The notes under the pieces are model-generated. The model searched no databases, was not told where the DNA came from, and was given only the letters and a program-made list of their open reading frames with translations. The position numbers and the translations under genes were made by a program. DNA of 64,000 bases from a virus. Below, piece by piece: positions 13,424 through 42,482 of this stretch. The stretch covers positions 58,895 to 122,894 of IMG/VR virus record IMGVR_UViG_3300037467_001050. The stretch is one strand, 5' to 3'. Position 1 is the stretch's first letter, and every line of letters begins with the position of its first letter.

Positions 13424-13894
13424 ATGGCCGACACGCTCCTGAGCATCGGCAAGAACTTCTTCTACTCGCCCAAGCCCGGCGAGGAGACCCCGAACTATCA
13501 GGCCCTGACCCGCGACCTCAACTGGACGTGGACGGCCCAGCCGCGGCTCTCGCGCGAGAACGCCAACCAGTTCACCGGCATCGGTGAGAAGCGCGCGATC
13601 GTCGAGGGGCGGCTCTACCCGCACATCTTCGGCGGCCTGAAAACCCTCGACGCGATCGAGGCGACCGGCGACGAGGGGAAGCCCGTGCCGCTGATCCGCT
13701 ACTTCCGCTTCACCAATCCTGTCGAATACATCGGCGAGCTGGTCGGCCTCTACGGCATCGCCCGCCTGCGCCGACAGGAAACCAAGATTAATTCTGGCAA
13801 CGTGCCGATGGCTGTCGATTTCACCCTTGAGCTGATCCAGTTCGGCGAGGACTCAGCCAGCACGTCGCCAGACGAATTCCTGAGGCTCGGCTGA
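13424..13894 (+). CDS. Phage tail protein (P2 gpU-like)
   Basis: WTAQPRL, QFTG.G, G.L.P motifs; follows the tape measure gene; GGAGG RBS. Confidence 0.85.
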   Translation: MADTLLSIGKNFFYSPKPGEETPNYQALTRDLNWTWTAQPRLSRENANQFTGIGEKRAIVEGRLYPHIFGGLKTLDAIEATGDEGKPVPLIRYFRFTNPVEYIGELVGLYGIARLRRQETKINSGNVPMAVDFTLELIQFGEDSASTSPDEFLRLG

Positions 13895-35534: not shown

Positions 35535-35927
35535 TCACTCCAGGATGCACCGCCACTCGGGCGGCAGGATGCAGTTGTCGGACGCGCCACGGAACAGCGG
35601 CGCGATCTGGTCATGGGTGTAGCCGGCAAGCCCGGTACCGATCGGGGTCACCTTGAACAGCAGGTTCGGATGGCTCTCTGCGAAGAGCAGGAAGCGGACG
35701 ACATGCCACTCGATCTCCCACAATGGGAGGGTAGTCAGTGGGCCGGTCCGGCCTCCGCGCTTGGTCGGGATGGCGTAGCTGAAGCCCTGAAGGCCCTCGT
35801 CCTGCCCGTAGATTGCCCCGTGGTTCTGGACAGCGAAAAGGGCAGCGCCCTTGCCGTGTCTCCCGTGGGGCTTGTTCGAGCCGAAGACGAATATGTCGCG
35901 TCCGACGTGCCCGTAGTCGGAGTTCAC
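35535..35927 (-). CDS. A1S_2505-like phage protein (macrodomain-like)
   Basis: IFVFGSN..GRHGKGAA, GLQG.SYAIPT, F.VT.IGTGLAG. Confidence 0.8.
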   Translation of the reverse strand: MNSDYGHVGRDIFVFGSNKPHGRHGKGAALFAVQNHGAIYGQDEGLQGFSYAIPTKRGGRTGPLTTLPLWEIEWHVVRFLLFAESHPNLLFKVTPIGTGLAGYTHDQIAPLFRGASDNCILPPEWRCILE

Positions 35928-36766
35928 TGGACGACGCCGACTGTCGCTTCCTCGGTTTCAGGGTTGGCGGCGTCGAACACCACCGCTACCCGGTTCTTCA
36001 CCGTCACGAATGGCGGCATCTCGAGGCAGGCCACATCCGAGCGCATCAGCTTGGCGCCAGGCTCAGGCCGGAACTTCTCCGGGATCGCAGCCCGCTCCTC
36101 CTCCGTCAGCTCCCGCTCGCCTGAAACGCGCCGCAGGTAGGTCCCGCGCTTGAAGAAGACGGGATAGGCATCGAAGTCGACACCGGCCTCTCTGAGCATC
36201 GCGCGCATGCCATCGACCGAAACACCGTGCAGCTGCTTCGCCGAGAAGTGGTGAAAGGCCGCCATGCTGACGGCGTTGCGGGTCGCATCGAACTCGCGCC
36301 ACAGGAAGGCGTTCGCACCTTCCTCGCGGCTCGGCAGGTTGAAGACGCGGGCATCGAAGTGCGGCAGGCGACTGGCGTAGGCAGCGAACTCGGGGTCGTG
36401 GAAGGTTGCCACTGTCCGGCCGAATGACGCGGTCGCCAACCCGGCGAGCACCGAGCACAGCTTCTGCACCTTGGCGTCGAAGAACATCTGCGAGCCCGGC
36501 ACGTCGGCAGGAACGTGCCAGATCAACGAGATCTCGTCGGACTGGGTGTAGCCGAGCCGCGCGCCTGCCTCCCTGATCAGGTGGCGGGTGGTCTCCCGCA
36601 TGGCGAATGACATGCGCTCGTCGAAGGGCCGGCGCATCCCGCGCGTGAACCGCGAGAAGCCGCGCCCATCGATGCGGGCGTAGACGGGCAGGTGCGGGTC
36701 GAGGCGGCGGCCGGTCTCGACGGCCTCGTACCCCTTCAGTCGATCCCCAAACGGATCCTTGCTCAC
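35924..36766 (-). CDS. thg1: tRNA(His) guanylyltransferase Thg1-like 3'-5' polymerase
   Basis: ARIDGRGFSRFT, YTQSDEISL, KL.SV.AG, FDARVFNLP, WR..DA.RN, FKRGT. Confidence 0.92.
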   Translation of the reverse strand: MSKDPFGDRLKGYEAVETGRRLDPHLPVYARIDGRGFSRFTRGMRRPFDERMSFAMRETTRHLIREAGARLGYTQSDEISLIWHVPADVPGSQMFFDAKVQKLCSVLAGLATASFGRTVATFHDPEFAAYASRLPHFDARVFNLPSREEGANAFLWREFDATRNAVSMAAFHHFSAKQLHGVSVDGMRAMLREAGVDFDAYPVFFKRGTYLRRVSGERELTEEERAAIPEKFRPEPGAKLMRSDVACLEMPPFVTVKNRVAVVFDAANPETEEATVGVVQ

Positions 36767-38153: not shown

Positions 38154-38389
38154 CGTAGTGGTGTGGGAAACGGTGTGGGAACGGCGACCCCGCGCCAGGT
38201 TCAATCTGATAAACCACTGATCAATCGATAGATTTTCACTTCAGCTCTTTGTCGAGCCAGACCGGCATGAACGGCATCTGAACCCCGATCTCCGTGAACG
38301 TCACAGCGTAAAGGACGCTGAGCGACCACGTTTGCCGACATTTGTTCTCGTTCCGTCCCGTCGTAGTGGTGTGGAAGTGGTGTGGGAAC
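38154..38389. mobile_element. attP: attP: paired arm-type direct repeats flanking a core
   Basis: GGTGTGGGAA at 38160-38169, 38172-38181 and 38379-38388, GGTGTGGAAG at 38368-38377; an AT-rich IHF-like segment at 38200-38240; a central imperfect inverted repeat at 38258-38280; immediately downstream of int. Confidence 0.75.
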
Positions 38390-38400
38390 TCGTCGCTCAC
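38236..38400 (-). CDS. 54-aa ORF across attP carrying an HcaT-like MFS transporter TM1 (putative replacement 5' end of the attB gene)
   Basis: The GTG start overlaps the integrase TGA; WSLSVLYAVTFTEIGVQMPFMPVWL aligns with HcaT RWLALGYFTYFFSYGIFLPFWSVWL (recalled sequence). Confidence 0.5.
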   Translation of the reverse strand: MSDEFPHHFHTTTTGRNENKCRQTWSLSVLYAVTFTEIGVQMPFMPVWLDKELK

Positions 38401-40967: not shown

Positions 40968-41207
40968 TCAGGAGACCTTCGGCACCCGGCAGCAGGCGCA
41001 CTCGGTCTTGGGTCGCCACCCGACGACCTCGTCGATGATCCGGGCGCCGGTCCAATCGCGGATCCAGTGCCCGAGGTGAGCGAGCCACCGGGCCTGCTGG
41101 ATCACCCAGCCATTGCCATCGAGCGGCTCGAGCAGGACCTCGACCACGCGGTCGTCGTCCGGCTTGGTGGTGTGCGAGAAGGTCTCGCGCGTCGGTTGGA
41201 TCCTCAT
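40968..41207 (-). CDS. Hypothetical protein
   Basis: ATGA coupling to thyA. Confidence 0.5.
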
Positions 41208-42163
41208 ACTGAAACCTCGGCTCGAATGGCCGGGAGCGGATCGTAGCCCTCCAGGGTGATGTCGTTGGCGGTGAAGGCGAAGAGGTCCTTCACGCTGGGG
41301 TTCAACTTGATCTGCGGAGGCTTGCGGGTCTCGCGCTCCAGCTGCTCGCGGGCCTGATCCAGATGGTTCAGGTAGAGGTGGACGTCGCCGCCCTGCCAGA
41401 CGAAGTGACCGGGCACCATGCCGACCACCTGAGCCATCATGTGCGTCAGCAGTGAGTATGACGCGATGTTGAAGGGTAGGCCGAGGAACACGTCGCAGCT
41501 GCGCTGGTCGAGCCGGCAGTCGAGGTATCGGCTCGGCACCTTCATCTCGTCCAGGAACTCTTCGGTCATTCGATCAGCCCGTGGCAGCTTGTCTCCGAGC
41601 CACCACCCCGGTGCGTTCTGCTCCATCCAGGCGACGCGCTGCGCCACCGTCATCGGCCGAGTGTTGAACTGGAACAGGCAGTGGCATGGCGCCAGCGCCA
41701 TCCGATCGAGATCGGCCGGGTTCCAGGCCGAGACGATCAGGCGACGGCTGTCGGGGTTCGTCTTCAGCTGCTCGATCACCTGAGAGATCTGGTCGATTGT
41801 TCTGGGCATGTGCCAAACATGACCGTCCTTGTCCTCAACCGGATCGTGATGCTTGGTCTCCCAGCTGCGCCACTGCTTTCCGTAGATCGGGCCGAGATCG
41901 CCATCTGGCCCAGCCCACTCGCGCCAGATCGTGACACCCTTGGCTTCCAGCTCATTGTTGTTGGTCGAGCCGCGGACCATCCATAGGAGTTCCTCGACGA
42001 CGCCCTTGAAGTAGACCTTCTTGGTTGTGACCAGCGGGAAGCTCTCGGTCAGGTCGAACCGCATCTGGTGACCGAAGATGCTCTTCGTGCCGGTGCCGGT
42101 TCGGTCACCCTTCACGGTGCCGTACTGGAGGATGTGGCCCAGCAGGGCTTGGTACTGCATCAT
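41204..42163 (-). CDS. thyA: Thymidylate synthase
   Basis: [54 protein letters not shown]. Confidence 0.97.
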
Positions 42164-42164
42164 G

Positions 42165-42482
42165 TCAGTGGCACTCCATCCTCTTGTAGAGCTTCCGCAA
42201 TTCCTCAGGACGACCACCGCCGTCTGCGACGAACATCCGCCGAACCTTGCGGCGCACGTTGGCCCGCTCAGGATCGTGTGGTCTGCCGGCCCCCGTTCCG
42301 CCGGCGGCGCGGTGCTGGCTCCAAGCCCGGTGTGCCCGCGCGAGTGTGTCCTTCCGGACCTTGTCCCTTAGGGCGTACCTAACAGACGACTCAGAAACAC
42401 CGAGACGCTTCGCGATCTCTGCTTGGCTGCAGTAGGCCTCGAGTTTACGTGCGCGGGCCCACCATTCTGGCTCTAGGCGCAT
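42165..42482 (-). CDS. Small HTH DNA-binding protein (paralog A)
   Basis: [20 protein letters not shown]. Confidence 0.7.

Follow-up and report, generated by a model that had tools for sequence, protein, structure and literature searches.

A probable attP of a temperate Methylobacterium phage directed at the 5' end of a host MFS_1_like transporter gene

INTRODUCTION

Integrases that cut within genes usually belong to elements whose attP replaces the end of the target gene, and near-identical integrases from one subclade have been reported to use a tRNA gene and a protein gene (PMC10111431). The dusA-associated tyrosine integrases, which occur in prophages and islands, replace the 5' end of the gene with sequence from the element (Farrugia et al. 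2015, PMC4482086), and the Int of SXT/R391 is described in PMC2791158, citing Hochhut and Waldor 1999, as inserting at the 5' end of prfC. For integration of the phage 21/e14 type in icd, the account given in PMC10111431 is of an extended attP identity block that replaces the gene end and leaves the gene functional; the same source cites Williams 2002 for crossover of tRNA-targeting phage integrases in the anticodon loop.

Here, we analyzed a 64,000-nucleotide stretch of viral DNA (the window), which makes up the last 64 kb of a 122,894-bp record that is linear, without terminal repeats, and rated complete. It is very probable that a site beside a tyrosine integrase gene (int) in this window is the intact attP of a temperate Methylobacterium phage in its unintegrated form, that the integrase exchanges strands in a host MFS_1_like gene, and that a phage copy rebuilds the 5' end of that gene. 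An initial annotation had drawn a parallel to the dusA-associated integrases with a different target, and the parallel holds: in both systems, an element with a tyrosine integrase supplies a new 5' end for a conserved protein gene. The two differ in that the target here is an MFS_1_like gene and the insertion does not lie at the 21-bp dusA consensus, that the relatives of the window integrase use tRNA genes, and that the replacement frame runs back to the int stop codon without interruption. SXT/R391, in turn, is a conjugative element of Gammaproteobacteria with another target gene (prfC) and an integrase of another family. The icd system of phage 21/e14 shares with the window an extended attP identity block replacing the end of a protein gene, but there the 3' end is replaced and the host promoter is kept, whereas here the 5' end is replaced together with all upstream signals. 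The mechanism is already known from dusA, prfC, and icd; what is new is the target and the host group, with a legible link to an ancestral tRNA site.

RESULTS

Organization of the integration module

The features of the module are collected in Table 1. The int product scored 40.8 bits against Pfam Phage_integrase (cut-off, 27.1), which places it among the tyrosine recombinases, and matched the PHROG integrase family at 1.3e-26. Its catalytic motifs are readable (HTLRH in box II; VYGHH plus the tyrosine), and its C-terminal end is encoded by GCG TGA. By PHROG assignment, phage genes stand on either side of the module.

Table 1. Coordinates of the integration module in the window
Feature	Position	Strand	Basis
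Flanking genes, Thg1-like tRNA-His guanylyltransferase or thymidylate synthase	35924-36766 and 41204-42217	minus	PHROG 4717, PHROG 160
P'-arm pair of arm-type sites	38154-38182	minus	two exact GGTGTGGGAA copies on plus strand
ORF54, 54 codons, GTG start overlapping int TGA (GTGA)	38236-38400	minus	ORF translation
attP/attB identity block ATGCCGTTCATGCCGGTCTGGCTCGAC, 27 nt	38251-38277	minus	unique in window
Interval holding the strand-exchange overlap, TTCATGCC	38264-38271	minus	fossil attL/attR polymorphisms
Diverged phage copy of host gene 5' coding region	38278-38333	minus	BLAST, Methylobacterium genomes
P-arm pair of arm-type sites	38362-38389	minus	direct repeat of P' pair; exact GGTGTGGGAA at 38379
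Tyrosine integrase int, 413 aa	38397-39638	minus	Pfam PF00589; PHROG 1

The two arm pairs are direct repeats of about 29 nt, 208 bp apart, each made of two GGTGTGGGAA-type units with ACTACG after them. In the direction of int, the P-arm pair reads TTCCCACACC and TTCCACACC, then ACTACG, and it falls within the first 13 codons of ORF54. Exact copies of GGTGTGGGAA occur three times in the 64-kb window, all at attP (38160, 38172, and 38379), and a degenerate fourth copy lies at 38368-38377. Paired arm repeats had been described about 80 bp to either side of the core, and they lie 76 and 81 bp from the core proposed at that time; an imperfect inverted repeat placed at the same core proved weak, agreeing at 4 of 8 positions. 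Arm-type sites thus flank on both sides a 27-nt block that is common to host genomes, as in an attP of the lambda type. The arm-site pattern CCCACACYN{3,6}CCACACYACTACG had no match in viral contigs and nine matches in metagenome contigs, none of them with an integrase or MFS match.

ORF54 is present as first annotated, with its GTG overlapping the int TGA and encoding the peptide then quoted. Its stop codon had been put 14 nt past the core; the distance is 19 nt from the annotated core and 12 nt from the end of the identity block. Codons 25 to 49 of ORF54 duplicate TM1 of the host MFS gene and share the reading frame in which the host encodes MPFMPVWL. Residues 24 to 51 gave a weak match to positions 1 to 28 of Pfam MFS_1_like (E = 0.079), and no longer protein was matched when the 54-aa sequence was used in a word-based search.

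Both attP and int are internal to the virus record, and a 16.2-kb contig from the soil metagenome that is the probable source of the phage bridges attP with zero differences. No attL or attR joints were seen in public runs, among which the small-share runs X2 to X4 held short pieces only. Searches for a lysogen of the window phage found none. A 213-nt, depth-3 contig of the source soil metagenome matches positions 38255-38288 alone (34 nt, 3 differences) and probably stems from the target gene of a resident Methylobacterium.

The target is a single-copy gene in most Methylobacterium genomes

BLAST of positions 38225-38345 against whole genomes gave a match in Methylorubrum aminovorans (E = 2e-10), at the start of a 401-aa ORF (L127:1460-2665) that scored 134.2 bits against MFS_1_like PF12832 (cut-off, 25.2; 7.6e-39). 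The target gene scored 547.2 bits against NCBIfam NF037955 (cut-off, 100) over profile positions 1 to 366 and 168 bits against the HcaT equivalog NF008346, below its cut-off of 259. Going by these profiles, its product is an HcaT-related MFS_1_like transporter (PPP family). The alignment of ORF54 with TM1 of HcaT proposed in the initial annotation therefore stands for MFS_1_like membership and relatedness to HcaT, but not for HcaT equivalog status.

Matches to the attP DNA were taxonomically narrow: 115 of 146 Methylobacterium genomes had one, as did 14 of 301 from the family and 4 of 401 from an order-wide sample (those four from a single family). No genome had more than one copy, and the E values ranged from 2e-10 to 5e-18. 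When up to three mismatches were allowed, the 27-mer ATGCCGTTCATGCCGGTCTGGCTCGAC occurred once per genome in 124 of the 146 Methylobacterium genomes and was exact in 13, and the reversed control pattern had no match in the same 146. The core thus matches inside an MFS_1_like gene, as had been predicted for a BLASTN comparison with host genomes, and does so in Methylobacterium.

Alignments of attP with the host genes fall into three zones: about 70 nt covering the first codons, in which the phage copy is 75 to 90% identical to the native genes; the identity block; and a region of no similarity on the 3' side of the block, where the match breaks off abruptly at 38251. Phage and host read MPFMPVWL in the same frame. 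The native proteins begin MPRPSGPARLSLLYAV..., which sets the start of the block at codon 25, so that the phage copy replaces about 28 codons.

A sequence of the form TTGACAGG...TTTAACGGGCGCTTACGG is conserved about 100 nt upstream of the native MFS start in many Methylobacterium species (L153 to L164; for example, L177:13408-13440). It may be a native promoter or regulatory site that integration would disconnect from the gene.

A fossil insertion at the same site in Methylobacterium phyllostachyos

In one genome (G738, Methylobacterium phyllostachyos by the NCBI name of its protein; locus L177, 19.9 kb), the match to attP reaches further upstream than in any native gene. The native upstream region and native 5' end of this locus align with other species up to position 13587, where every alignment ends. 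At this left junction (attL), ...GCGATGCCGTTCATGCC gives way to AT-rich DNA, and TTTTCCCACACTGCTTCCCACACTACTACG, a homologous P'-arm pair, comes 80 nt later. About 4.1 kb downstream, at the right junction (attR), TTTTCCCACACCACTTCCCACACCACTACG precedes a phage-type 5' end, which continues through ...AGTATGCCATTCATGCC into host-type sequence; this 5' end is 81% identical to window positions 38251-38388 over 140 nt (E = 2e-29). Judged by these sequences, the two junctions are the attL and attR of a related element with the arm-type sites of the window, inserted at exactly the target site of the window.

Both junctions share TTCATGCC. Immediately 5' of it, attR carries the phage-type A, whereas attL and every native gene carry G; immediately 3' of it, attL and attR cease to be identical. 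These two polymorphisms place the crossover of the fossil element within TTCATGCC, and analogy to the anticodon loop would make TTCATGC (38265-38271) the 7-nt overlap. The 7-bp overlap named in the initial annotation, GTTCATG, includes the polymorphic base and is therefore off by one or two positions.

The rebuilt gene at attR (L177:17713-18879, 388 aa) is an intact, in-frame fusion that scored 536.6 bits against NF037955 over profile positions 2 to 366. Its phage-type N-terminus, MNKRVKTWSLIALY..., was unique to the M. phyllostachyos protein among the 39 N-termini returned by a directed protein search. It uses an internal GTG start of its own, and the same codon is GAG in the window, so that the two elements are without a common start codon. 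By manual count, the two phage-type 5' copies differ by 9 amino-acid changes versus 2 silent ones; with differences that are mostly amino-acid changes, purifying selection on the phage copy is without support.

The 4.1 kb between the junctions (L177:13588-17672) carries cupin, LysR, and Schlafen/AlbA_2-HATPase_c_4 (ATPase) genes and has no integrase gene. Possible readings of this insert are a prophage in decay or an element lacking its own integrase that the Int of a related phage could mobilize in trans. Prophages with close Int homologs had been anticipated in hcaT-like genes: no intact prophage with int adjoining an MFS gene was found, and the single natural insertion is the one in M. phyllostachyos, without its integrase. 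Taken with the match in host genomes and the in-frame join, this insertion supports the proposal that the phage integrates in the 5' end of an MFS gene and supplies a phage-encoded N-terminus.

Relatives of the integrase use tRNA genes

In a maximum-likelihood tree, the window integrase was sister to that of L082 (support 99/96), and the two fell within a 25-row clade of Hyphomicrobiales (support 100/99) whose members use tRNA-Met or tRNA-Pro. Relatives in this clade are 46 to 63% identical to the window integrase, with L082 at 61 to 63%, and a collection of 5.8 billion proteins held no integrase more than 61% identical to it. Nearly all relatives with readable flanks were assigned to tRNA-Met or tRNA-Pro by BLAST with those tRNAs, and in loci where a protein gene such as sua5 follows int on the same strand, ARAGORN placed a tRNA-Pro(CGG) or tRNA-Met(CAT) gene on or across the stop codon of int; L082, L083, and L010 to L013 are tRNA-Met users and L003 to L009 tRNA-Pro users. 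The phage-borne tRNA fragments start at tRNA positions 28 to 31, that is, in the anticodon stem, and in the free-form relatives L082 and L083 paired arm repeats flank the tRNA-Met 3' half on both sides. Rfam reported no RNA family at the tRNA-like fragments beside the relatives' integrases; these fragments are 3' parts of tRNA-Pro.

Protein genes were also considered as targets of these relatives, namely, the 5' end of sua5 for those from Bradyrhizobium and SIMPL, Na/Ca-exchanger, and AhpC genes for others. These candidates were rejected because the tRNA-Pro or tRNA-Met gene found by ARAGORN at the int stop codon makes the adjacency of int to a protein gene (same strand, 3' of int) coincidental. 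There was no Dus-family (dusA) gene among the genes downstream of the relatives examined, and tblastn of the 54-aa ORF against the relatives' loci gave noise only. The window itself contains no tRNA gene or tRNA fragment, and its phage, with an MFS gene as target, does not have the combination of a tRNA 3' half in attP and a tRNA target.

Three further observations concern loci in this survey. In L067, L068, L071, and L073 (Nitratireductor, Shinella, and an uncultured Rhizobiaceae MAG), an EPSP-synthase-family gene lies 0.65 to 0.86 kb downstream of int on the same strand, with integrases that are 36 to 38% identical and come from four genera. A prophage beside a tRNA-Pro-targeting integrase relative carries an Rfam Phage_DGR RNA (L029:3373-3504; 67 bits), which points to a diversity-generating retroelement in that prophage. 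Finally, the integrase of L014, a contig labeled Frankia sp. RB7, groups tightly with that of Bradyrhizobium sp. ORS 111 (support 100/100), which suggests a mislabeled or contaminating contig.

The core resembles the tRNA-Met anticodon arm

When the 251-nt att region was compared with Methylorubrum tRNA-Met on either strand, the best ungapped 19-mer agreed at 15 of 19 positions, pairing GCCGTTCATGCCGGTCTGG (38257-38275) with ACCGCTCATAACGGTCTGG. Such a match was reached anywhere in 22 of 1,000 shuffles (p ~0.02). It puts the crossover interval on the tRNA-Met anticodon loop, with an identical right half-site, CGGTCTGG, and the resemblance rests mainly on this half-site plus TCAT. Oriented by this tRNA-like polarity and followed along the sense of the target, the arm sites are TTCCCACA, and the same holds in L082, L083, and L016.

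The window and its tRNA-targeting relatives are thus alike in integrase clade, in having paired arm sites on both sides of the core, in the polarity of the arm sites relative to the core, and in the right half-site. They differ in that the relatives carry a tRNA 3' half and rebuild the 3' end, whereas the window attP carries the 5' end of a protein gene, and in the sequence of the overlap. At the level of sequence, this suggests that the ancestors of the integrase targeted tRNA-Met and that the lineage reached its present target through use of a tRNA-like secondary site, the MPFMPVW codons being similar to the tRNA-Met anticodon arm. The initial annotation had held that its proposed target would fall if related integrases mapped to tRNA genes; they literally do so, yet the target itself is not refuted, and the mapping points to its origin.

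DISCUSSION

Two other readings would place the phage elsewhere. Were the region a prophage-host junction in a chromosome, a linear record without terminal repeats would be no surprise; we give this almost no credence, as both arm pairs are present, the MFS-like frame ends 12 nt beyond the identity block, int sits inside a virus record (122.9 kb) that is rated complete, the site has phage genes to its left and right, and the 16.2-kb contig crosses attP. The early claim that an intact attP marks the free form is upheld by that contig and by the presence of both arm pairs. Alternatively, the phage might still integrate in a tRNA-Met gene like its relatives, the MFS resemblance being incidental. 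Close relatives do use tRNA-Met or tRNA-Pro, and 15 of 19 core positions agree with the tRNA-Met anticodon arm; the overlap nevertheless differs (TTCATGC versus CTCATAA), and the longest exact run common to core and tRNA is 8 nt, compared with an exact 27 nt for the MFS gene, which also shares about 70 nt of homology beside that run. With no tRNA or tRNA fragment in the window and a related element with the same arm sites sitting in the MFS gene, continued use of tRNA-Met is highly improbable.

On the favored reading, integration in the MFS_1_like gene, the integrase would bind the two pairs of arm-type sites and exchange strands within TTCATGC(C), which falls in codons 27 to 29 of the single-copy, HcaT-related host gene, the phage's diverged copy of the first ~28 codons lying on the int-proximal side of the crossover. 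Integration would then create the order int, arm sites, and phage-type 5' end, with the remainder of the host gene continuing in the frame of that 5' end. The native promoter and native 5' end would be carried to the opposite junction of the prophage, in a frame that would stop after a few codons. There, the native promoter would drive a peptide of about 50 aa ending in DKELK and, speculatively, could read on into phage genes beyond the P' arm. As for the rebuilt gene, the simplest reading is that it would be expressed by read-through from int with coupled re-initiation, because no start codon other than the GTG overlapping the int stop lies in frame ahead of TM1. Consensus scans found no promoter-like site around int and ORF54 and no terminator-like site between them; the single terminator-like match lay on the opposite strand inside int and was below shuffle expectation. 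No Shine-Dalgarno sequence was seen before ORF54.

It is also conceivable that integration simply inactivates the transporter, with the 5' copy left over from the origin of attP (imprecise excision from a secondary site) and the frame open to the int stop by chance. This would agree with the absence of a promoter-like or ribosome-binding site before ORF54, with the estimate that about half of random 24-codon stretches at this GC content are stop-free, with the loss in the window of the internal GTG start of the fossil, and with the mostly nonsynonymous differences between the two phage-type copies. We nonetheless consider inactivation unlikely: the join is in frame, the LYAV-F-TE-G-MPFMP residues and a basic residue before TM1 are kept, the rebuilt gene of the fossil is still full length (536.6 bits) despite the loss of the element's integrase, and elements whose integrases cut inside genes ordinarily bring a replacement end with them (PMC10111431, PMC4482086). 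In a fuller scenario, which is possible though doubtful, a tRNA-Met lineage jumped to a protein gene by anticodon-arm mimicry of MPFMPVW and swapped 3'-end for 5'-end replacement; the transporter would be expressed in lysogens only via int, through the GTGA overlap, and the host promoter would read into phage genes, amounting to a reciprocal promoter swap.

The analysis provides a mapped attB for Methylobacterium phages, 27 bp long, single copy, and present in most species of the genus, which could serve as an integration tool in a group used in plant and methanol biotechnology. It also documents a probable shift of an integrase clade from a tRNA target to a protein-coding one, for which the likely basis in the sequence can still be read, and it offers a testable example in which expression of a host membrane transporter may become dependent on a prophage integrase operon.
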